64,000 nt of DNA, from positions 36,284 to 100,283 of IMG/VR virus record IMGVR_UViG_3300005253_000054. One strand, 5' to 3'. The DNA comes from a virus. Positions 7,656 to 39,000 of this stretch are shown piece by piece. The first letter of the stretch is position 1, and every line of letters starts with the position of its first letter. Position numbers and translations under genes: made by a program. A model generated the notes under the pieces. That model had not been told where the DNA came from. It did no database searches and saw only the letters and a list, made by a program, of their open reading frames with translations.

Positions 7656-9061
7656 AACCCGCAACACCCCAAGCAATGGAATTGATGATGAAAGGGGCCA
7701 TAGCCTTATCTCAAGTAGAGGCGGACGGGATGCGGATCGACGTTGATTATCTTGATAAGACCATCAAAAAAGTTACGAGGAATATCGCACGACAGACAGA
7801 GAAGCTAAAGGAATCAGAGGAGTGGAAAGTTTGGAAGAAACTCTATGGAAGCAAAATGTCCTTAGAGAGTGGACCACAGTTAGGCAAAGTTCTGTTCGAC
7901 AAGATGGGTCACAAGTGTATAGCCAGAACGAAAACGGGCAAGCCAGCAACGGACCAGACTGCTTTGGAGCAACTAGACATCCCATTCGTAAGGAGATTGT
8001 TGAGCATTAAGAAGAAAAAGAAGATGCTCAGCACGAATCTCAAAGGAATCAGACGTGAGGTAGTAGATGGTATTGTAAGACCTTCATTCAATTTGCACCT
8101 TGTTACTACATACCGATCAAGTGCTGATCGTCCTAACTCAAAAAATATACCAGTTAGGGATAAGAAGATAGGGAGGATGGTACGAAAGGCGTTCATTCCG
8201 AGGGATGGTCATGTTTTGGTAGAGATTGATTACTCTGCCGTAGAATTTAGGGTTGCATCGTGTTTTTGGCAAGATGAGGCAATGGTAGACTATGCCAGTA
8301 ATCCCAATAAGGATATTCATAGGGATATGGCTGCCGAGTGTTATATGCTGAGAGAAGAGCAAGTAACAAAGGATGCCAGATTCTATGCTAAGAATCAATT
8401 TGTTTTTCCAGAGTTGTACGGTAGTTGGTATGGACAATGTGCCATAAATTTATGGGATGCCATTGGAAAAGGAAAGTTGGAAGTTGGTATGACAGATGAT
8501 GAGGAGTGTCGATGGTGTGGTGTGGGTTGTCGTAGTGATGTATGTTCAGTTTGTGGGGGAAAGCAGAAACGGGGATTGAAAGATCACCTGAATTCTAAAG
8601 GGATTACGGGTGTAGAGGGATTCAAAAGGGTTGTTCAAGATGCAGAGAATACTTTTAATGAGATGTTTCACGTATATAACGAAAAGAAAGAGGAATGGTG
8701 GGAAACCTATCTGAAAAGGGGTTATATTCGTTTGATGACCGGGTTTGTTTGTCAGGGAGTTATGAGTCGCAATAAGGTTTACAATTACCCCACTCAAGGT
8801 CCGGGTTTCCACTGTTTGCTTTGGTCCCTGATTCAGATGGTAAAGCGATTGCGAAAGGTGAAGTCGATGGTGATTGGAGAAATATACGATAGCCTTATCT
8901 TGGACGTACATAGGTCTGAGTTGGACGATGTTTTGCAAATGGCTAAACAAGTGATGACGGTCGATTTGTTGAAAGCGTGGGACTGGATTATTTGCCCTAT
9001 GGAAATCGAGGCTGAGGTTGGCGAGGAAAATTGGGCAGATAAGAAAGAGGTGGAGATATGA
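7652..9061 (+). CDS. polA: Family A DNA polymerase, polymerase domain only
   Basis: RSSADRPNSKNIP, motif A EIDYSAVEFRV, DIHRDMA, motif B RFYAKNQFVFPELYG, NYPTQG, motif C EIYDS. Confidence 0.9.
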   Translation: MKPATPQAMELMMKGAIALSQVEADGMRIDVDYLDKTIKKVTRNIARQTEKLKESEEWKVWKKLYGSKMSLESGPQLGKVLFDKMGHKCIARTKTGKPATDQTALEQLDIPFVRRLLSIKKKKKMLSTNLKGIRREVVDGIVRPSFNLHLVTTYRSSADRPNSKNIPVRDKKIGRMVRKAFIPRDGHVLVEIDYSAVEFRVASCFWQDEAMVDYASNPNKDIHRDMAAECYMLREEQVTKDARFYAKNQFVFPELYGSWYGQCAINLWDAIGKGKLEVGMTDDEECRWCGVGCRSDVCSVCGGKQKRGLKDHLNSKGITGVEGFKRVVQDAENTFNEMFHVYNEKKEEWWETYLKRGYIRLMTGFVCQGVMSRNKVYNYPTQGPGFHCLLWSLIQMVKRLRKVKSMVIGEIYDSLILDVHRSELDDVLQMAKQVMTVDLLKAWDWIICPMEIEAEVGEENWADKKEVEI

Positions 9062-9432
9062 TTTGGCCATCAGGAATAGAATGTGATAGTAACGAAATTG
9101 AGTTGTGGTATGATGATCTTGACGAGGATGTTATGGGCAAAATCAATAGGTGTCTAAAAGAAAAGGGTTTTCAGTTTGTGGATGATGGCTTAATACACGA
9201 TGGGTATTCTGCCTATCGTTTGGAGAAGTTGTGATATGAAAGTTGGGAAAGAAGTTAGTGTGACTCCAGTATGTCAAGGGTGGTGTAGTGTGTTTGCTAC
9301 AAATTTAGTTCCATTAACGGTATCAATACTTGGTAAAACGAAATTAGAAGAAAAATCACAAGTGGAATTTGCTAAAGAAGTTTATGAATGTTATCGACAG
9401 AAACAAGCCAAGGAACGTGGAGAATTAGAAGA

Positions 9433-12400
9433 TTGAATTATCAAACATTCCTCAAAACGAAACGACTACGAACCGATCCTAAAGGATTCGATCCGATATG
9501 GTTACCAGATTGGTTATTCGGATTCCAAAACCATTTGTGTGATTGGTCGATTCGTTTGGGCAGGTCTGCTTTATACGAGGACTGTGGGCTTGGCAAAGGC
9601 AGTCCTCCCAATATGCCTGTTTTAACTCCCACTGGATTTGTCCCAATAGGCAGTTTGGAAATTGGTGATTCTGTTATAGCTTCTGATGGAAAATCCTATG
9701 ATGTAAAGGGGGTTTACTTCAAACCGAGGCAGGATGTTTTCAGATTATGGTTTAGTGATGGTGTTTCGTTAGTAGTGGATTCTGACCATTTGCATATATG
9801 CCGAACAAATAATGACAGACAAAGAGATAAGCCCTGGCGTGTTTTGAGTACCAAGGAATTGTTGGAATGTAATAATTTGAGATATGGTAGTGATGGGAAG
9901 TCTCGTAATTACGATATTCCCGTTGTTGGTCCAGTGGAGTTTTCAGTGGATTGCCCCAAAACATTGACACCATATATTATCGGAGCCTTGTTGGGAGACG
10001 GTTGTACTTCTCAACCAAGTATGATTCAATTCACATCTGCGGATTCTGAGATTGTCAACAGGATCAATAATGAATTGTTGGGTGGTGTTGAATTAGTTTA
10101 TAAAGATCGTTATGAATACCGGTTAAAAACTGGTAAGACTGGTTGTGTGAAACATCCTATTCGTGCTTTTTTGTATCGGATTGGGATGATGGGGAAATTG
10201 TCGTATCAAAAAAGTATTCCAAAAGAATACCTTATGTCGAAACGAATAGAGGATAGGTTGGATTTGCTTCGTGGTTTGATGGACACGGATGGGTACATAA
10301 TGAAGTGTGGTACTTCTCAGTTCTATTCTGTTAGTAGAAAGCTTGCGACAGACGTGGAGTTTTTGGTCAGAAGTCTTGGGGGTGTTCCCACTTTTTCTAG
10401 GAAGCAAACCAGTTTGAATGGAGAACGAAAGAGGGATTGTTATACTGTTACATTTTCATTAAAGACCTTCAATCCTTTCTTTCTGTCGAGAAAAGCAGAA
10501 AGATGGAATCCCGATCCTAGGGACAATGGTAGGTGGATTGATTCCATTGACTATGAGGGACAATCTGAGACAGTGTGTATTTCTGTTGATTCTCCTGATT
10601 CTAGTTATGTCACTAGGAGTTTCATTGTTACACACAATACTCCCCAGCAATTAGTATGGGCTGAGAATGTGGTTAGACACACAAACAAACCCGTTTTGAT
10701 TGTGGCACCTTTGGCTGTATCCGCTCAGTTTGTTACAGAGGCAGAGAAGTTTGGGGTAGGGATACATCGTAGCCGTGATGGTAGATTGAAAAAGGGAATC
10801 AATGTTACGAATTACGAGCGATTACATCATTTTGATCCGAAGAGATTAGCTGGAATATCCTGCGACGAGTGTTTCCCTCCGGGAACGGCAATAGATGTTG
10901 TGAACCCCCTTGACAATTCTTTAGAAAAGAAGTATATTGAAGATATTGCACGGGGTGACCAAATTCTCAATGCTTCTGGAGTAGATCATGTCAAACATAT
11001 ATGGAAGAGAAAAATCAACGGGGCGGTTCAAGTCGGCACCGAAGGATCTAAAATTACCTGTAGCGAAAATCATCCATTCTTTACCTTGCATGGTTGGAAA
11101 TTCGCACGAGATTTACGAGCCGGAGATTGTGTCATGGAGACAGCCTCGGCAATGTACTTGGTGCGGGGAGATTTTCAATCCGAAATATGTAGCGAACAAG
11201 ATGGCGAGATTTTGCGGAACATCTTGCTCAGCGAAATGGCGGATGAATACACCGGAACACAAAGCAAAAGTACACAATCCAACTGTTGCCAAAAAAAGAG
11301 GAAAATCGAAAGCATTATGGTTCAGAGGAGGATCAGCAACAGCCAAAAAAGAACTCAAGCGGATAGCCGAGTTGTGTCCGATGAAAGATCCGAAAGTGAG
11401 AGCGAAGGTGTCCAAACGATTGAAAGAGATAGGACACAAGCCGAGGATTCAGGGAGGGAATGGGAGACCTTTGACGGAGCCGCAACAGATGCTATTAGAT
11501 TTGTTGGGTGGGGAGTGGGTTGCAGAATATCCAATTACCCTTGGGAAAAAGATACCCGGATATCCAACGAATTACAAGGTAGATATAGGTTGCCAATTAC
11601 GAAAAACAGCAATCGAGTTGGATGGGCATTCTCATTATTCCAGAAAAGAATTGGATCAGAAGAAAGACGAAATGCTGGCTTCGTTAGGGTGGACAGTGTT
11701 GAGGTTTTGGAATTGGGACATCCTAGATTGGATAAATGGAGGGATGAAAAAGGAGACGTCTATTTCTATGATATTGAAGCAACACGACATCCATCTTTCA
11801 GTGTGAATGGTTTGTTAGTACACAATTCGTCTATCCTAAAAAACTTTGATGGAAAGATGCGAAGAAGAATTACAGATTTTGTATCATCTATCAATTATCG
11901 TCTCCTATGCACGGCCACCCCAGCACCAAATGACCACATGGAATTGGGAACATCCTCCGAAGCATTGGGTGTAATGAGCCGTGGTCAGATGCTAGGAATG
12001 TTTTTCGTTAATGGTGGGGAAACAACGCAACAATGGTTGCTAAAAGGTCACGCGAAGAAACGATTCTGGCAATGGATGGGAACGTGGGCCAGGGCTATTC
12101 GTATGCCATCTGATCTTGGTTTTGATGACGGGGATTTTATTTTACCAGAGTTGATAATGAAACAGCATCTTGTACCTAGTGAGGTTACGGATGGATTCTT
12201 TCCTACTATGGCTGTTACGTTGGATGAGCAGAGGGCAGAACGAAAACGGACGATGCAGGCTAGGTGCGAAAAAGTGGCTGAGATTGTTCCTAATGATAGG
12301 CCATTTGTTGCTTGGTGTCATCTGAATCCAGAATCAGATTTGCTGGAGAAGTTGATTCCTGATGCCGTTCAAGTTAGTGGTAGTATGAAAGATGAGGTGA

Positions 12401-12759
12401 AAGAGGAGCGATTGAAAGCGTTTGCTGATGGGCAGATAAGGGTACTGGTTACTAAACCAAAAATTGCTTCATTCGGTCTTAATTGGCAGCACTGTGCTGA
12501 TATGTCATTCTTCCCGTCTCATAGTCATGAGCAATTTTATCAGTCTTTACGACGATGTTATCGGTTCCAACAAGAGAATTCAGTAACTTGTAATATCGTT
12601 ACGAGTGAGGCTGAGAGTAGAGTTTTGGATAACATGATGCGGAAAGAGCGGCAGGCTGTGGAAATGTATGATGGGATCGTAAGAGAAATGGGTAGGGCTT
12701 TGGATGAATCGAATGGGCAAAAAGGAAACGAGGAAACGAGTATACCGTCATGGTTGTAA
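9433..12759 (+). CDS. SNF2-like SF2 helicase containing two inteins
   Basis: After removing the inteins: GLGK|T Walker A, DE|SS Walker B, TATP, FGLNWQ, QSLRRCYRFQQ. Confidence 0.9.
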   Translation: MNYQTFLKTKRLRTDPKGFDPIWLPDWLFGFQNHLCDWSIRLGRSALYEDCGLGKGSPPNMPVLTPTGFVPIGSLEIGDSVIASDGKSYDVKGVYFKPRQDVFRLWFSDGVSLVVDSDHLHICRTNNDRQRDKPWRVLSTKELLECNNLRYGSDGKSRNYDIPVVGPVEFSVDCPKTLTPYIIGALLGDGCTSQPSMIQFTSADSEIVNRINNELLGGVELVYKDRYEYRLKTGKTGCVKHPIRAFLYRIGMMGKLSYQKSIPKEYLMSKRIEDRLDLLRGLMDTDGYIMKCGTSQFYSVSRKLATDVEFLVRSLGGVPTFSRKQTSLNGERKRDCYTVTFSLKTFNPFFLSRKAERWNPDPRDNGRWIDSIDYEGQSETVCISVDSPDSSYVTRSFIVTHNTPQQLVWAENVVRHTNKPVLIVAPLAVSAQFVTEAEKFGVGIHRSRDGRLKKGINVTNYERLHHFDPKRLAGISCDECFPPGTAIDVVNPLDNSLEKKYIEDIARGDQILNASGVDHVKHIWKRKINGAVQVGTEGSKITCSENHPFFTLHGWKFARDLRAGDCVMETASAMYLVRGDFQSEICSEQDGEILRNILLSEMADEYTGTQSKSTQSNCCQKKRKIESIMVQRRISNSQKRTQADSRVVSDERSESESEGVQTIERDRTQAEDSGREWETFDGAATDAIRFVGWGVGCRISNYPWEKDTRISNELQGRYRLPITKNSNRVGWAFSLFQKRIGSEERRNAGFVRVDSVEVLELGHPRLDKWRDEKGDVYFYDIEATRHPSFSVNGLLVHNSSILKNFDGKMRRRITDFVSSINYRLLCTATPAPNDHMELGTSSEALGVMSRGQMLGMFFVNGGETTQQWLLKGHAKKRFWQWMGTWARAIRMPSDLGFDDGDFILPELIMKQHLVPSEVTDGFFPTMAVTLDEQRAERKRTMQARCEKVAEIVPNDRPFVAWCHLNPESDLLEKLIPDAVQVSGSMKDEVKEERLKAFADGQIRVLVTKPKIASFGLNWQHCADMSFFPSHSHEQFYQSLRRCYRFQQENSVTCNIVTSEAESRVLDNMMRKERQAVEMYDGIVREMGRALDESNGQKGNEETSIPSWL
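9598..10638 (+). mobile_element. Intein 1 (347 aa) with in-frame LAGLIDADG endonuclease; Gly at position 1, class-3-like
   Basis: GSPPNMPVLTPTGF ... VCISV ... IVTHN|T; YIIGALLGDG and LLRGLMDTDG motifs; splicing restores GLGKT. Confidence 0.9.
10910..10938 (+). promoter_or_regulatory. Sigma70-like promoter inside intein 2
   Basis: TTGACA-17 nt-TATATT; SD GGAG at 10978-10981 before ATG 10988. Confidence 0.75.
10988..11806 (+). CDS. Vsr/DUF559-like endonuclease with Zn finger, nested in the +1 frame of intein 2
   Basis: CTWCG..FCGTSC; YKVDIG..AIELDGHSH..DQKKDEMLASLGWTVLRFWN. Confidence 0.85.
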   Translation: MSNIYGREKSTGRFKSAPKDLKLPVAKIIHSLPCMVGNSHEIYEPEIVSWRQPRQCTWCGEIFNPKYVANKMARFCGTSCSAKWRMNTPEHKAKVHNPTVAKKRGKSKALWFRGGSATAKKELKRIAELCPMKDPKVRAKVSKRLKEIGHKPRIQGGNGRPLTEPQQMLLDLLGGEWVAEYPITLGKKIPGYPTNYKVDIGCQLRKTAIELDGHSHYSRKELDQKKDEMLASLGWTVLRFWNWDILDWINGGMKKETSISMILKQHDIHLSV

Positions 12760-13703
12760 AGAAACAACTAATTACTGATAACTATGCTCTCCATTGCGGT
12801 GATTGCGTGGAGGTGTTAGCAGATTATCCGGATGAATCAATTGGCTTTTCCGTATTCTCACCACCGTTTAGTGATTTGTATTCGTACACGGATGAGCAAG
12901 AGGATATGAGCAACGTCAGGGATTACAAGGAATTCTTTAAGCATTTCAGATTCTTAGTCAATGAATTGCTTCGTCTTATGCTTCCTGGTCGTGTGGTGGC
13001 TGTGCATTGCATGGATATACCTACTTACAAACGGGATGGTGAGGGTATAGGGATTCGGGATTTTCCGGGTGATATTGTCCGATGTTTTCAGAAAGTGGGG
13101 TTCATTTTTCATAGCCGTCATTGCATCTGGAAAGATCCCCTGATAGCAGCGACTAGAACGAAAGCAATCGGACTAGCCCACAAGTCAGTAGTAAAGGATA
13201 GCAGTATATGTCGTACTGGTATTCCAGATTACATCGTGTCGTTCCGAAAGCCTGGGGAGAATCTGAAACCGATTGAGAATCTGAATGGGTTTACTGAATA
13301 CATAGGTTCTCGATCAGTTCCTAAAGACTTTGATAAGTATATTGGCTGTGAGATTCCAAAAAAGAACAGACGATCCCAATGGATTTGGCAACAGTACGCT
13401 TCCCCTGTTTGGTTTGATATTGACCAAACAAAGGTATTGCCATTTAGGAATGCAAAGGGGAAGGATGATACTAAGCACATTTGTCCTTTACAACTTCAGA
13501 CGATAGAAAGGTGTATGGTATTGTGGTCGAGGGAAGGTGATAATGTTCTATCACCATTTATGGGAGTGGGTAGTGAGGTTTATGTAGCTGTAAAGAATGG
13601 GAGAAGGGGTATCGGTGTAGAACTCAAAAAGAGTTATTATAGGCAAGCCGTTTTGAATGTGAAACAAGCCGAGAAGAAAAGGTCAGCTGGTTTCGATTTG
13701 TAA
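12750..13703 (+). CDS. DNA N4-C/N6-A methyltransferase (beta-type motif order)
   Basis: FSPPF (motif IV) precedes VLSPFMGVGS (motif I). Confidence 0.9.
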   Translation: MVVKKQLITDNYALHCGDCVEVLADYPDESIGFSVFSPPFSDLYSYTDEQEDMSNVRDYKEFFKHFRFLVNELLRLMLPGRVVAVHCMDIPTYKRDGEGIGIRDFPGDIVRCFQKVGFIFHSRHCIWKDPLIAATRTKAIGLAHKSVVKDSSICRTGIPDYIVSFRKPGENLKPIENLNGFTEYIGSRSVPKDFDKYIGCEIPKKNRRSQWIWQQYASPVWFDIDQTKVLPFRNAKGKDDTKHICPLQLQTIERCMVLWSREGDNVLSPFMGVGSEVYVAVKNGRRGIGVELKKSYYRQAVLNVKQAEKKRSAGFDL

Positions 13704-14037: not shown

Positions 14038-14296
14038 ATTGTAAGGAGAATGATACGAAATGAGCACCATAAAAATAGATGATGATGGTTATGCGAAAGT
14101 CACGACTGGTAATCTTACGGCTAGATTCGGTTGGGATGGTCATCCAAATGGTGCTAGGGGAATCGAACGTGCTTGTGAGCAGATAGCTAAGCTACAGAAT
14201 ATAATACTTGAACAACGCAAAATCCTCGACAAGTTGCCGAAGGATGCTGAAGGAAACGTGTACCCGCCGCCAAGCTCCTAACCGAAAGGATTGACG

Positions 14297-16138
14297 ATGC
14301 CCCCAGAACTCTATCGTAAATACCGACCTACCAAATTCTCAGAGGTATTAGGTCAACCTGAAGCAATCAAGACCCTAAACGATTGGGGCAAGCAAAAAGC
14401 GATACCCCACTTCCTGCTATTCACAGGCCCTAGTGGGTGTTTGCGTGGGGATACGAAGATATTTGATCCGGTGGATTCTAGTGATTTGTCTATTCGGGAG
14501 CGTTGGAGGATTGGTCATCCTTTCCATGTTTTGTCGAGGAACGAGGATAACAGGCTGGTAGTGGCGGAAGCGATGCCACCGGTCCGCCATTCTCCAGATT
14601 GGATGTATCGTGTAAAAACTTCTGAATCGCTTTTTTACGTAACGTCCGAACACCAGTTCCTCGTTGACACTGGTGAGTACCTTTCATTGAGGGAACTTTA
14701 CGCTCGGAGATTCGACGGAGTCCATCTTCTGACCACTTGGGACATTTCCCAAGCAATTCAACACCAAGATGCTCACCATTGTTTGCAAACAAGATTAGAT
14801 TATTCGGATCGTTATCGGTCTTATCCCCGTTTTTATGATGAACGACTTCCGATTCAGTCAGATATCGATTCAAAATACGCTCAAGCACCAAACGATGTTC
14901 TAGGACGTAACCGTTTCTCGCATTTGGATGTTTTGGCATCCGTATCAAAACATAACCATCCCCGTCAATTACACGACCACCTTTCCAGGCAGGATTATCG
15001 ACACCACGTTGGAAAGAATACTGTGGACGAATTTGGGTGTTTGAACGTTTCAACGATTCACGAACGTTTTGACGTTTTGTCTTCAGACGTTTTGCGATTT
15101 GTTTCTGAGTCCAACCGTCTTGATACATGCCCGAAACTAACTTGTCCCGTTCTGGAGTCCAAATACGACGCCTGTGTGGATAGAAGCCTTTTGGCATTGT
15201 CTTCTCCTTGTTTTGATAGGACCATATTCTCTAGTACCATTATACAAGATATCTCCCAAACAAGCAAGCAGCCCTACTATGATTTTCATGTTCCTATTTA
15301 CGAGAATTATTGGGCTGGTGGTTTGATTCATCATAATTGTGGCAAAACGACTTTAGCCCGAATTCTTCGGAAGAAACTCAAGTGTTCCGACCACGATTTT
15401 ATAGAGGTGAATGCCGCCGAGACAAACGGGATTGATATGGTGCGGTCTATCGCGAGGGTAATGGGCCTTGCACCGATGATGGGCAGGTGTAGGGTGTGGC
15501 TCATAGATGAGGCTGCTAGGCTCACTAAGGATGCTCAGAGTGCTTTCCTCAAGATGCTGGAGGATACGCCCGAACACGTCTATTTTATGCTGGCGACAAC
15601 TGATCCTCAGAAGTTACTACCCACGATTATGACAAGGGCATCTGAGATTAAGGTAAAGGCTTTATCTTCTAAGGATATGACGGATTTGGTTAGAGGCGTA
15701 CGTCATCAAGAGGAGCAAGCCAATTCTGAAGAGGATTTGGTTGGAATATCCGATGACGTTTGTGATAAAATTATTGACATAGCAGACGGATCGGCAAGGA
15801 AAGCATTGGTCCTATTGCATCAAGTGATTGGTGAAGGGGACGAGGAGAAGCAGTTAGCGGTCTTGCAACAGGCAGATAGCAAGCAACAGGCAATTGAGAT
15901 TTGCCGATTGCTAATGAAAGCGAATACATCGTGGAAGCAGATGGCTAAGCTGCTTAGAGCCGTTGACGACGAGCCGGAGGGTATCAGGCGGCTGATGTTG
16001 GCTTATATGACCAAGGTAGGGCTGAGTGGTAATAAGAGGGCCATCGTGTGTCTTGAGGCGTTTGAGGAGCCTTATTTCAATACTGGCAGGGCAGGATTGG
16101 TTTTGTCCTGTTGGAATGTAATCAATGGAGGTGGATGA
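14297..16138 (+). CDS. dnaX: Clamp loader (DNA pol III gamma/tau-like) with intein
   Basis: LYRKYRPTKFSEVLGQ; GPSG|CGKT after splicing; IDEA; AFLKMLEDTP. Confidence 0.9.
   Translation: MPPELYRKYRPTKFSEVLGQPEAIKTLNDWGKQKAIPHFLLFTGPSGCLRGDTKIFDPVDSSDLSIRERWRIGHPFHVLSRNEDNRLVVAEAMPPVRHSPDWMYRVKTSESLFYVTSEHQFLVDTGEYLSLRELYARRFDGVHLLTTWDISQAIQHQDAHHCLQTRLDYSDRYRSYPRFYDERLPIQSDIDSKYAQAPNDVLGRNRFSHLDVLASVSKHNHPRQLHDHLSRQDYRHHVGKNTVDEFGCLNVSTIHERFDVLSSDVLRFVSESNRLDTCPKLTCPVLESKYDACVDRSLLALSSPCFDRTIFSSTIIQDISQTSKQPYYDFHVPIYENYWAGGLIHHNCGKTTLARILRKKLKCSDHDFIEVNAAETNGIDMVRSIARVMGLAPMMGRCRVWLIDEAARLTKDAQSAFLKMLEDTPEHVYFMLATTDPQKLLPTIMTRASEIKVKALSSKDMTDLVRGVRHQEEQANSEEDLVGISDDVCDKIIDIADGSARKALVLLHQVIGEGDEEKQLAVLQQADSKQQAIEICRLLMKANTSWKQMAKLLRAVDDEPEGIRRLMLAYMTKVGLSGNKRAIVCLEAFEEPYFNTGRAGLVLSCWNVINGGG
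14490..15197 (-). CDS. HNH homing endonuclease with N-terminal HTH, antisense within intein 3
   Basis: GWTQKQIAKRL HTH; NPAWKGG; YVLEHRLV..EVVHHKNGDKTDNDPNNL; SD AAGGAG 6 nt before ATG. Confidence 0.9.
   Translation of the reverse strand: MPKGFYPHRRRIWTPERDKLVSGMYQDGWTQKQIAKRLKTKRQNVRESLKRSNTQIRPQYSFQRGVDNPAWKGGRVIDGDGYVLIRMPKHPNARNGYVLEHRLVLERILNRYLTESEVVHHKNGDKTDNDPNNLILFANNGEHLGVELLGKCPKWSEDGLRRISERKVPSMKGTHQCQRGTGVRTLRKKAIQKFLHDTSNLENGGPVASLPPLPACYPRSSTKHGKDDQSSNAPE
15239..15267 (-). promoter_or_regulatory. Antisense sigma70-like promoter inside intein 3
   Basis: Minus strand TTGCTT-17 nt-TATAAT, about 40 nt upstream of the HNH ATG. Confidence 0.75.
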
Positions 16139-36050: not shown

Positions 36051-39000
36051 ATGGGTATTATTATACTACCAAATCCGAAACCTACTTTGGGTCGCCATAC
36101 TCGTAATGCTAGGCAGGCTAAGAATCCGTCTGCATGGCAAGGTTTGGTTGGTGCTTGGTTTCCAATACTTGGTAATATGGGCCGCACGTTACGAGACATC
36201 AGCAGTCGCCACAATCACGCGAGCAACAACGCGACGTGGGTAGTCGGCGACGAAGGGCCAGAGCTAAAATTTACGTTGGGATCTCAGCAGTTTTTGGAAC
36301 CAAGGAACAACATACCCGATTCGATTGCATCCTCTGGCACGATTGCGATGCGGATGTCATGGTTGAGTGCATCAGGCGTACAATGGGCTTGTTCACACCC
36401 GTCAGGCGACAGAATATACATCAGGAAAAACAGTTCTAATTGGGCCTGGAGGCTCGGATCGTCGGCGTTAAACACAACGGCCGTATCGACCGTCGCGGGT
36501 TTGTACGTTACTGTAGTCCTTGCCTGGGATGGGACAACCGGGCGATTCTATGTCGACGGGAAAGAAGTCGACAGTAACACTTATACCGGTTTGAGTGCCC
36601 CACTCTCTGGTCCATTTTATTTTGGCCGGTTATCCACTACCTATTCGTCAATGTCGTTGCAATGGGCGGCGATATGGGATCGAGCACTTACCGCTTCGGA
36701 AATTAAAGATTTTTCTGACAATCCCTTCTGGCTAATCACACTAGCGACGAAAAATATTGCAGTATCAGGTGTTGTTGATGTATCGTCATCGAGTATCAGT
36801 ACGTCTTCACAGTCAAGTATATCAACGTCAAGTGAATCATCCTCTTCATCAATATCAACATCAAGTGAATCCTCTTCATCTTCAGTTAGTACAAGTAGCC
36901 AGTCATCTATTTCGACTAGTTCTGAATCATCGTCATCGTCGATTTCGACATCTTCACAATCATCAATAAGCACCTCTTCTGAATCTTCATCGTCAAGTAT
37001 CAGTACCAGTAGTCAATCGAGTATTAGCACATCATCAGAATCATCTTCATCATCAATTAGTACGTCAAGTCAGTCATCTATTTCGACTAGTTCTGTTAGT
37101 TCATCATCCTCAATTAGTACGTCAAGTGTTAGCTCGATTAGTACGTCTTCGGCTTCGTCAATAAGTACCAGTTCTAGTTCAATTAGTACATCATCCAGTT
37201 CAATTAGCACATCATCATCCTCGATCAGCACATCATCTAGTTCGATTAGCACGTCGAGTATATCAACAAGTAGTTCATCCATCAGCACTAGTTCGATCAG
37301 CACATCATCCAGTTCGATTAGCACATCATCTAGTACATTCCTTGATAGTAGTGCATCTAGTATATCATCATCATCGTCAATTAGCACAAGTAGTATATCA
37401 TCCATAAGCACATCATCAGAATCATCATCATCATCAATTAGCACAAGTAGCCAATCAAGTATAAGTACATCTTCAGAAAGTTCATCGTCTAGTATATCGA
37501 CGTCAAGCCAGTCAAGTATAAGCACATCTTCTGAATCATCTTCATCATCAATTAGTACGTCAAGTCAGTCATCTATTTCTACCTCGTCAGAATCATCTTC
37601 ATCATCCATAAGCACAAGTAGCCAATCAAGTATTTCGACTAGTTCTGAATCATCATCGAGCAGTATTAGCACAAGTAGCCAATCATCTATTTCTACCTCG
37701 TCAGAATCATCTTCATCAAGTATTAGTACGTCTTCTCAGTCAAGCATTTCTACCTCTTCAGAATCCTCGATTAGCACATCTTCAGAAAGTTCATCGTCTA
37801 GTATATCCACATCAAGTCAGTCAGTTGATTCATCATCATCTTCGATCAGTACATCTTCCGAATTATCTAGTAGCTCGATTAGTACATCATCAATTAGTAC
37901 CTCTTCGGAATCATCACTGTCAAGTTCGTCAAGCACGGGATTATTAAAGTATCCCGTTAGCAAGACAGTTACAAGAGTAGGACCAGCAAGTAAAACTATC
38001 ACGATTATAGGTCCATCAAGTTCTGGTGTGACCGTAGTGGGACCGGCGAGTAAGACGGCAACGGTTCCATTGAGCAGACTTTTTGATGAAGAGGATTCGT
38101 CTGTCAGTAGCCAATCTAGTATATCAACGTCGTCTAGTAGCTTGAGTAGTGTTTCTACTTCGTCGGACAGTTCGTTATCTAGTATATCTACCTCTTCTGT
38201 TTCTTCATCTTCTTCAATAAGTACCTCTTCTGTTAGTTCAATAAGCACAAGTTCTGAATCATCATCCAGTAGTATTAGCACATCGTCGGAATCGTCAATA
38301 AGTACGTCGAGTGTATCGAGTGTTTCGACATCAAGTCAATCCAGTATAAGCACATCATCTGAATCGTCTTCATCATCAATTAGCACAAGTAGTCAATCAA
38401 GTATTTCTACCTCGTCTGAATCGTCTTCATCATCAATTAGTACCTCTTCTCAGTCATCTATTTCTACCTCTTCAGAATCATCTTCATCAAGTATTAGTAC
38501 GTCTTCTCAGTCTAGCATTTCAACGTCAAGTGAATCGTCTTCATCAAGTATTAGTACCAGTTCTCAGTCAAGTATATCAACGTCTTCAGAGTCGTCTTCC
38601 TCATCTGTCAGTACATCAAGTGAGTCGTCCGTAAGCACATCTTCTGAATCATCTTCATCATCTATTAGCACATCTTCTCAATCAAGTATAAGCACATCCT
38701 CTGAATCATCCATAAGCACATCATCTGAATCGTCTTCATCGTCTATTAGTACCTTTTCTGAATCAAGTATTAGTACTTCTTCTGAATCCTCAATAAGTAC
38801 GTCGAGCCTATCAAGTATAAGCACATCATCTGAATCATCTTCATCATCCATAAGCACATCTTCTGAATCCTCTTCAAGTAGTATTTCTACCAGTAGTCAA
38901 TCATCAATATCGACTAGTTCTGAATCTTCATCCAGTTCTATTAGTACATCTTCACAATCGAGTATTAGTACATCAAGTCAGTCATCAATTAGCACAAGTA

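Follow-up and report, generated by a model that had tools for sequence, protein, structure and literature searches.

An intein, and a gene concealed within it, are described here from a 64,000-nucleotide stretch of viral DNA (the window, in whose numbering positions are given) spanning positions 36,284 to 100,283 of the IMG/VR virus record IMGVR_UViG_3300005253_000054, a complete genome of 100,283 bp with direct terminal repeats. Sequence comparisons and structural models confirmed that the Walker B site of a phage SNF2 helicase is occupied by a contiguous class-1 mini-intein, inserted between Asp-Glu and Ser-Ser (DE|SS). On the same evidence, an open reading frame (ORF) located in the +1 frame of this intein is a real gene, the product of which combines an FCS-type zinc finger with a DUF559/Vsr-fold domain of predicted nuclease activity. 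We consider it likely that the element is a contiguous Walker B intein whose endonuclease is encoded by a separate +1-frame gene on the same DNA and would promote homing; protein splicing, expression of the nuclease and site-specific cleavage are the activities that we infer for it.

The intein and the nuclease gene

Intein-free homologues of the SNF2 host gene read ...VLDE|SSILKNFDGK..., and the large ORF of the window reads ...LAGISCDE|CFPPGTAIDV ... NGLLVHN|SSILKNFDG.... The reading DE|CFPPG...LLVHN|SS therefore places the intein, the second of two in this gene and hereafter intein 2, at 10870-11826, between the Walker B Asp-Glu and the next Ser-Ser. The features of the locus, with lengths and residue positions in amino acids (aa), are as follows; AF2 stands for AlphaFold2 and pLDDT for its predicted local distance difference test.

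9388..12759 (+): SNF2-type helicase host gene with two inteins; 1123-aa precursor ORF with Pfam Helicase_C and Intein_splicing matches
10864..10869 (+): last two N-extein codons, Asp-Glu of Walker B (helicase motif II), from the sequence
10870..11826 (+): intein 2, 319 aa, Cys1...His-Asn with Ser at +1; Pfam Intein_splicing, E 4e-12
10870..11247 (+): N-terminal splicing (Hint) half including block B, intein aa 1-126; AF2 pLDDT ~95 over aa 1-100
10910..10938 (+): sigma-70-like promoter candidate TTGACA-17-TATATT, inside the coding sequence of the N-terminal half; 11/12 match
10978..10990 (+): Shine-Dalgarno GGAG, 6-nt spacer and nuclease ATG, from the sequence
10988..11806 (+): nuclease gene, 272 aa plus stop, +1 frame; ORF within 9388..12759 at an offset of +1 nt
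11153..11227 (+): predicted FCS-type zinc finger, nuclease aa 56-80, CxxC...FCxxxC; from the translation and matches to 2w0t and 2l8e, conserved among homologues
11248..11667 (+): host-frame linker, intein aa 127-266; open, predicted disordered
11453..11794 (+): Vsr/DUF559-fold catalytic domain (predicted), nuclease aa 156-269; from VIA-align and invariant D199, E210, D212, H216, D223 and N242
11668..11826 (+): C-terminal splicing half with blocks F and G, intein aa 267-319; AF2 pLDDT ~95
11827..11832 (+): first two C-extein codons, Ser-Ser, of which Ser+1 is the splicing nucleophile; from the sequence and the junctions

The Pfam Intein_splicing match to intein 2 lies above the cut-off and spans aa 37-319, interrupted by a long insertion. 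The best profile match in the PDB was to the gp41-1 intein (6qaz, E 3e-16), and PHROGs returned no match for the host-frame intein. As expected of a class-1 intein, the element begins with a nucleophilic Cys1, ends in His-Asn and is followed by Ser at +1; C1, H68, H318 and N319 are invariant among 32 related inteins. Block B reads S-E-N-H (SENHP), with H68 invariant and P69 nearly so, and with Ser replacing the Thr of TxxH in most family members. In an AF2 model built with an alignment of these 32 inteins, most of aa 1-126 and aa 267-319 were placed at pLDDT ~95, whereas the linker (aa 127-266) was modelled at pLDDT 29-41 and devoid of secondary structure. Foldseek searches with the confident part of the model retrieved the gp41-1, RecA and DnaB mini-inteins with a probability of 1.00, the best fold match being the gp41-1 split intein at a root-mean-square deviation (rmsd) of 1.9 Å.

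An initial annotation of this DNA, made from its letters alone, had described a 272-aa ORF starting at 10988 in the +1 frame and lying wholly within intein 2. The ORF was indeed found at 10988..11806, where it overlaps the codons for block B (SENHP) as well as those for block F (VYFYDIEATRHPSF). Its translation contains the CxxC...FCxxxC finger (C56/C59, C76/C80) and the YKVD...IELDGHSH...D...GWTVLRF core on which the earlier assignment to Vsr/DUF559-like nucleases was based. The hidden Markov model search proposed at the time returned PF04480 at E 2.8e-13 and 50.1 bits for a cut-off of 20.6, and the assignment now stands on this Pfam match, on matches to Vsr-type folds and on purifying selection in the nuclease frame. 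Database searches yielded 172 homologues, the closest 61% identical over the full length, and Y196, D199, E210, D212, G213, H216, D223 and N242 were invariant in an alignment of 24 of them. The profile derived from this alignment matched the DUF559 structure 3hrl at E 3.9e-13 and gave a weak match to I-Bth0305I, a homing endonuclease (3r3p, E 0.004), while the protein's N-terminal portion matched the FCS-type zinc fingers 2w0t and 2l8e in both profile and fold comparisons.

The AF2 model of the nuclease has a mean pLDDT of 85.4 and is mostly uncertain over the first ~45 residues only. Aligned with VIA-align, its aa 156-269 superimposed on 3hrl with a Z score of 10.3 (rmsd 2.3, 85 aa), on I-Bth0305I 3r3p with a Z score of 9.2 (rmsd 3.1 Å, 90 residues) and on E. 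coli Vsr with Z scores of 8.2 (1cw0) and 7.8 (1vsr). The 17 residues separating D199 from H216 equal the spacing of the catalytic D196 and H213 of I-Bth0305I (PMC3239194). A Foldseek search with the whole nuclease model gave no match at E <= 0.001, the domain-level resemblance emerging only with VIA-align, and the hits in PHROGs were weak ones, linking the zinc-finger region to 'HNH/homing endonuclease' families at E 4e-4 and weaker.

Indels fusing the nuclease in frame with the intein, an objection raised in the initial annotation itself, were not borne out by other assemblies of the same sequence. Positions 10700-12000 of the window were compared to Logan contigs from three public runs and showed 0 differences and 0 gaps, with a word depth of ~32x in one of the runs. 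The three runs represent two samples of one marine-sediment study, which is possibly itself the source of the record; the comparison covers assembled contigs, in which rare variants and transcript ends are invisible.

Dual coding and recurrence of the layout

The claim that both frames stay open for more than 800 nt held, with an overlap of 819 nt that is far above chance expectation. To quantify this, the codons of the nuclease ORF were shuffled synonymously, 2000 times per locus, in 71 distinct related loci. In the window, 0 host-frame stops were found compared to a shuffle mean of 12.4, with 0 stop-free shuffles out of 2000, whereas the third frame contained 20 stops for 18.5 in the shuffles. 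Likewise, every one of the 71 loci had 0 host-frame stops (shuffle mean 10.2), no stop-free shuffle was seen among 2000 in 68 of them, and their third frame, with 19 stops on average, matched the shuffle prediction. For a stop to arise in the host frame, T must be the last base of a nuclease codon and the next codon must begin with AA, AG or GA; codons ending in T were found at 0 of the 5133 positions that precede such a codon, compared to 24% elsewhere.

Codon-position diversity and amino acid identity were then computed over a codon alignment of 21 SNF2-site loci, with the following results.

10985-11149: most variable at host codon position 3; amino acid identity 0.47-0.49 in the host frame, 0.31-0.37 in the nuclease frame
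11150-11719: most variable at nuclease codon position 3; identity 0.20-0.55 in the host frame, 0.40-0.73 in the nuclease frame
11720-11803: most variable at host codon position 3; identity 0.61-0.77 in the host frame, 0.45-0.57 in the nuclease frame

Within the linker (11248..11667), identity was 0.20-0.41 in the host frame compared to 0.42-0.61 in the nuclease frame. As judged from these alignments, purifying selection along the overlap acts first in the intein frame, then in the nuclease frame and finally in the intein frame again. Because the most variable codon position switches in this manner, the nuclease ORF appears to be carried at its two ends by the splicing blocks and in its functional core by the linker. 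The first ~55 and last ~28 nuclease codons are constrained by the intein frame rather than by the nuclease protein, and the functional nuclease may thus be narrowed down to roughly residues 55-245. The double coding is real by these comparative measures, both frames being kept open by selection.

Going by the structural model, the linker (aa 127-266) is filler, a "shadow" translation of the nuclease gene. Three motifs conserved in the host frame of the linker, LQxR, RxGW and LRxILLSEM, raised the possibility of a functional in-frame domain, which was rejected because the nucleotides are those of nuclease motifs: LQxR and RxGW share theirs with the invariant YKxD and IExDG of the nuclease, and LRxILLSEM with the zinc-finger segment RFCGxSCSAKW.

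A wider stretch, AMRLVR...LRxILLSEMxxE (window 11140-11250, host frame, intein aa ~91-121), overlaps the zinc finger, is kept even in distant family members and folds into two helices in the model (pLDDT up to 89). Going by codon-position diversity, its conservation seems to be driven by the nuclease frame, and the stretch may have a real double function.

To determine how widespread the arrangement is, viral contigs were scanned with the nuclease alignment, which was used for the family where a single-protein query had given one locus only; 388 stretches were confirmed by tblastn and the best 80 examined. The nuclease ORF was fully nested in a same-strand ORF of 700-1770 aa in 79 of these best 80 loci, and the frame offset was constant, the host frame being the nuclease frame +2 in all nested loci. 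A scan of one genome per prokaryotic species added ~33 nested cases in metagenome-assembled genomes and genomes (for example Longilinea arvoryzae). Ordinary cellular DUF559 genes matched the catalytic core only and were not nested. With 79 of the best 80 viral loci, 388 confirmed stretches and ~33 genome loci, the layout is therefore common rather than a curiosity. Wherever junctions could be set, the insertion point was always found after the hhhhDE of Walker B. The residues following the intein were SSILK in SNF2 hosts and [SC]HxIKNP in other SNF2 proteins, CHH, CHK or CQH in ResIII/DEAD helicases, CHNLL or CHKLT in DnaX-like clamp loaders and CKEE in a terminase. Hosts confirmed by Pfam comprised SNF2 proteins, ResIII/DEAD helicases, a DnaX-like clamp loader, a terminase and an SNF2-methylase fusion. 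Across these alignments the unit is ancient and recurrent.

One of the loci (L030) has a host in which SNF2 and a DNA methylase domain (Pfam N6_N4_Mtase, E 1.5e-16) form a fusion. Four full-length relatives are free-standing (L025 and the genome contigs L094, L102 and L113). The first of these, at L025:3890-4693, is the sole non-nested case among the best 80 viral relatives; it encodes a 267-aa nuclease between unrelated small genes, and its -1 frame keeps remnants of intein block F (LYFFNFEIKRHTNYTIN) broken by stops. From these remnants, it looks like a copy that left its intein.

A more far-reaching reading, to which we would grant a little less than an even chance, is that all of these loci descend from a single ancient composite element. 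A free-standing nuclease gene would have overprinted a mini-intein once, and the element would carry its own promoter and ribosome-binding site within the N-terminal intein coding sequence; as indels other than multiples of three are forbidden in both frames, the offset would have been locked, and the unit would have hopped among the DE sites of at least five P-loop ATPase families. The 'fractured genes' of Dassa et al. would then have in it their contiguous counterpart, either as a precursor or as a derivative. If true, free-standing homing endonucleases, split inteins and canonical inteins would be connected by this element as their missing intermediate.

Proposed mechanism and alternative readings

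Under the reading that we prefer, that of a Walker B intein with an overlapping endonuclease gene, translation in the helicase frame would produce a precursor in which two Hint halves are joined by a disordered linker of ~140 residues, selected only for the absence of stop codons and expected to leave with the intein upon protein splicing. Ribosomes initiating at the internal Shine-Dalgarno/ATG pair would produce the zinc-finger and Vsr/DUF559-fold nuclease from a transcript that probably originates at a promoter within the N-terminal intein coding region, or from the helicase mRNA itself. By analogy with I-Bth0305I and with the Vsr-like nucleases of 'fractured genes', the nuclease would cut intein-less DE|SS alleles of co-infecting phages, the repair of which would copy the intein and nuclease unit into the cut allele (homing).

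The internal expression signals listed in the initial annotation were all present. TTGACA (10910-10915) and TATATT (10933-10938), 17 nt apart, form the top sigma-70-like match between positions 9000 and 13000 (11/12), and GGAG at 10978-10981 stands 6 nt upstream of the ATG at 10988, directly before which the +1 frame is closed by a TAG stop (10982-10984). The homologous ATG is preceded at 6-8 nt by AGGAG or AGGAGG in L003-L008, L011 and L029, and more distant groups have a Shine-Dalgarno and start pair immediately ahead of the zinc finger. In 7-8 of the closest loci the promoter-like element is maintained, even where sites are synonymous in the intein frame. Elements scoring at least 10/12 were found within 300 nt upstream of the zinc finger in 16/58 loci (28%), compared to 19/1429 extein control windows (1.3%); for 11/12 elements, the proportions were 19% of upstream windows and 0.3% of extein controls. 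In most element-bearing loci, from both the SNF2 and the distant ResIII groups, the -10 box ends 185-214 nt upstream of the finger. These patterns support, and do not prove, an internal promoter of predicted activity within the intein coding sequence.

Intein-less DE|SS alleles, the targets that had been postulated for the nuclease, are plentiful: all 60 of the 60 closest relatives of the window's SNF2 C-extein in viral contigs (tblastn identity 35-77%) are uninterrupted. In a C-extein tree, obtained by a quick maximum-likelihood search on two locus sets collected by different queries, the window was sister to an intein-free locus (L163; 79% identity over 299 aligned columns, support 98), its clade was otherwise almost entirely intein-free, and well-supported branches forced at least 4 changes of intein state. 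The tree thus shows a patchy distribution of the intein in the sampled C-exteins and does not indicate the direction of transfer.

L163, the nearest C-extein relative (77-79% identity), corresponds to the match at 1825-2757 of IMGVR_UViG_3300033153_003948. Its uninterrupted DE|SS is, by sequence, a natural candidate target allele.

Several observations weigh against the preferred reading. With regard to the nuclease, no counterpart could be assigned to the third acidic residue (the last Asp) of the EDxHD motif, where the alignment reads RFxN with an invariant Asn as in DUF559, and the protein is much nearer to DUF559 (E 4e-13) than to I-Bth0305I (E 0.004). Its first ~55 codons lack protein-level constraint and most of aa 1-40 is modelled at pLDDT 53-62, so that the true start may lie downstream, for instance at the ATG of codon 35. 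In the intein, block B has Ser (SENH) where the Thr of TxxH is usual. The promoter was scored on the sigma-70 consensus, which may not be that of the phage's host; since the element lies in coding DNA, part of its conservation may stem from the intein protein, and no RNA run is listed among the public runs holding the stretch. Finally, the nearest intein and nuclease relatives are only 45-61% identical and therefore retain no trace of recent transfer, and the patchy distribution, drawn from a quickly searched tree of differently gathered locus groups, could be owed largely to loss rather than gain.

In a first alternative, the nuclease would no longer act in homing, being catalytically dead or decaying or having taken on another job (degradation of competitor-phage or host DNA, or DNA binding only), with the intein inherited vertically. 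The closest nucleases, only 61% identical, reside in distant SNF2 exteins, so that no recent homing is visible, and the cellular DUF559 proteins, which match in the core only and are not nested, are not homing enzymes. We nevertheless regard this alternative as rather unlikely, for every invariant catalytic-site residue is kept, selection in the nuclease frame is clear over 11150-11719, close relatives are mostly intein-free alleles, and at least five ATPase families carry the unit at an equivalent Walker B position, which requires repeated site-specific insertion.

Programmed +1 ribosomal frameshifting out of the helicase/intein frame would yield a fusion of N-extein and N-intein to the nuclease, an arrangement compatible with two frames on one strand, probably on one mRNA, and with an N-terminal ~55 codons free of protein-level constraint of their own. 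It is contradicted by the TAG that closes the +1 frame immediately before the ATG, by the retention in most loci of a Shine-Dalgarno and ATG at the homologous place or just ahead of the zinc finger, and by the free-standing copies L025, L094, L102 and L113; moreover, no slippery or shift-prone motif was seen, though no search for one was made. We consider this reading very improbable and, on these counts, rejected it. We attach just as little weight to a non-splicing intein, which would imply either a dead SNF2 gene or an insert tolerated as a surface loop, as in the ShiLan-type insertions that hide an HNH gene (PMC11855218). The Ser of block B is in its favor; yet the insert parts the DE of Walker B from the next residues of motif II, where a 319-aa loop is unlikely to be tolerated, the nucleophiles and the His-Asn end are all kept and invariant, the Hint halves are under host-frame purifying selection and modelled at pLDDT ~95, and stop avoidance over 819 nt is sensible only if the host frame is read to a useful product. 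Last, the displacement of an in-frame Vsr-type intein endonuclease by two compensating sequencing or assembly indels, a general possibility in metagenome assemblies and nothing more specific here, was rejected, as far as sequence data permit, as next to impossible in view of the identical frame offset in 79 of the best 80 viral and ~33 genome loci, the 0/5133 T-ending codons at risky positions, the identical and gap-free contigs of three runs (~32x word depth in one) and the stops that close the nuclease frame at both ends within the splicing blocks.

Genomic setting and relation to known systems

A blastn search of a phage collection with the SNF2 gene returned one weak match of 172 nt, to the helicase of Dulem virus 39, and no close cultured relative. 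Immediately downstream, a 317-aa ORF (window 12750-13703, +) begins 10 nt ahead of the SNF2 stop, and the overlap (12750-12759) suggests translational coupling of the two genes. Upstream of intein 2, intein 1 (window ~9598-10638, +) splits the Walker A motif GLGK|T, its first residue apparently being Gly, and contains an ordinary in-frame LAGLIDADG domain (Pfam LAGLIDADG_3, E 8e-6, ORF aa 292-352). A DnaX-like clamp-loader gene (window 14291-16138, +) carries an intein at a P-loop ATPase motif with its host frame open, within which a 235-aa HNH endonuclease gene lies on the opposite strand (window 14490-15197, -; HNH_3 E 5e-6, phrog_20891 E 1e-28). Three inteins, each with a different endonuclease geometry, are thus found within a single stretch of 6 kb.

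Since gene callers normally assign one frame per stretch, a nuclease such as that of intein 2 is missed, or called instead of the helicase, and an intein with a hidden nuclease is filed as a decaying or mini-intein. For intein evolution, the layout may be a concrete intermediate between free-standing homing endonuclease genes, the split inteins of fractured genes and in-frame intein endonucleases. The ~800 nt of dual coding with frame-switching selection make a clean natural test case for methods that detect overlapping genes, and protein engineering could mine the family for putative Walker-B-targeting Vsr-like nucleases and for gp41-1-like Hint domains with a long, presumably dispensable linker.

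Overlapping and anti-sense endonuclease genes in inteins date back to Gorbalenya 1998, as cited in two preprints (bioRxiv 10.1101/2025.01.02.630785 and bioRxiv 10.64898/2026.09.14.751524). In the actinophage inteins described by Gosselin, Arsenault and Gogarten (bioRxiv 10.1101/2025.01.02.630785), anti-sense LAGLIDADG, anti-sense Vsr-like and same-strand frame-3 endonuclease VII-like genes were found, and Vsr-like nucleases are otherwise known, according to the same preprint, only with split inteins. A cyanobacterial dnaX intein carries a LAGLIDADG gene in its +2 ORF with a similar pattern of disorder and selection (Phillips, DeSimone and Gogarten, bioRxiv 10.64898/2026.09.14.751524). Like these non-canonical inteins, intein 2 is contiguous, with an open host frame, an in-frame middle predicted to be disordered, a folded endonuclease whose complete, overlapping ORF is preceded by a Shine-Dalgarno of its own, a signature of purifying selection in the endonuclease frame and a patchy distribution over exteins. 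Unlike those described, it harbors a same-strand, +1-frame, Vsr/DUF559-like nuclease gene that extends into blocks B and F, and is a member of a family with more than 100 loci at the Walker B site of several ATPase hosts.

The closest parallel among split inteins is provided by the fractured genes (Dassa et al. 2009, PMC2677866), in which a free-standing Vsr-like homing endonuclease gene lies between the intein halves. There, the host gene is interrupted: the N-intein is followed by a stop codon, the C-intein has a start of its own after 27-51 nt of non-coding DNA, and the parts are joined by trans-splicing. The hosts in both cases are phage replication or packaging enzymes, control elements (putative in the present case) precede the nuclease gene, the 3' end of which overlaps the C-terminal intein coding region, and intein 2 finds one of its best matches, in sequence as well as in fold, in the gp41-1 split intein from their study. 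In contrast to fractured genes, the host frame runs unbroken from 9388 to 12759, as it does in 79 of the best 80 relatives; the interruption that defines them is therefore absent and splicing in cis is expected. The hosts differ as well, being gp41, IMPDH, DnaE, NrdA/J, ligase and terminase in the fractured genes and SNF2, ResIII, clamp-loader and terminase proteins, at Walker B, in the present family.

I-Bth0305I, the prototype of the 'EDxHD' Vsr-like homing endonucleases (Taylor et al. 2011, PMC3239194; PDB 3r3p), shares with the nuclease studied here a Vsr-type fold, the 17-residue spacing of Asp and His, residence in a phage intervening sequence and a two-part build of an N-terminal DNA-binding region (predicted in the present case) and a C-terminal nuclease. 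It differs in residing in a group I intron of recA and in relying on NUMOD DNA-binding motifs, in place of which an FCS-type zinc finger and a helical region are found. The ShiLan-domain insertions of phage methylases, which hide an out-of-frame HNH gene (Arsenault, Gosselin and Gogarten 2025, PMC11855218), similarly combine an endonuclease gene in another frame, an open host frame and a homing-like distribution. They are devoid of detectable splicing domains and encode an HNH nuclease, whereas the present element is a bona fide intein with a Vsr/DUF559-like nuclease. The general layout is thus already known, from 1998 and from the preprints of 2025-2026; what is new here is the type of nuclease, its geometry relative to the intein, the Walker B targets and the scale of the family.

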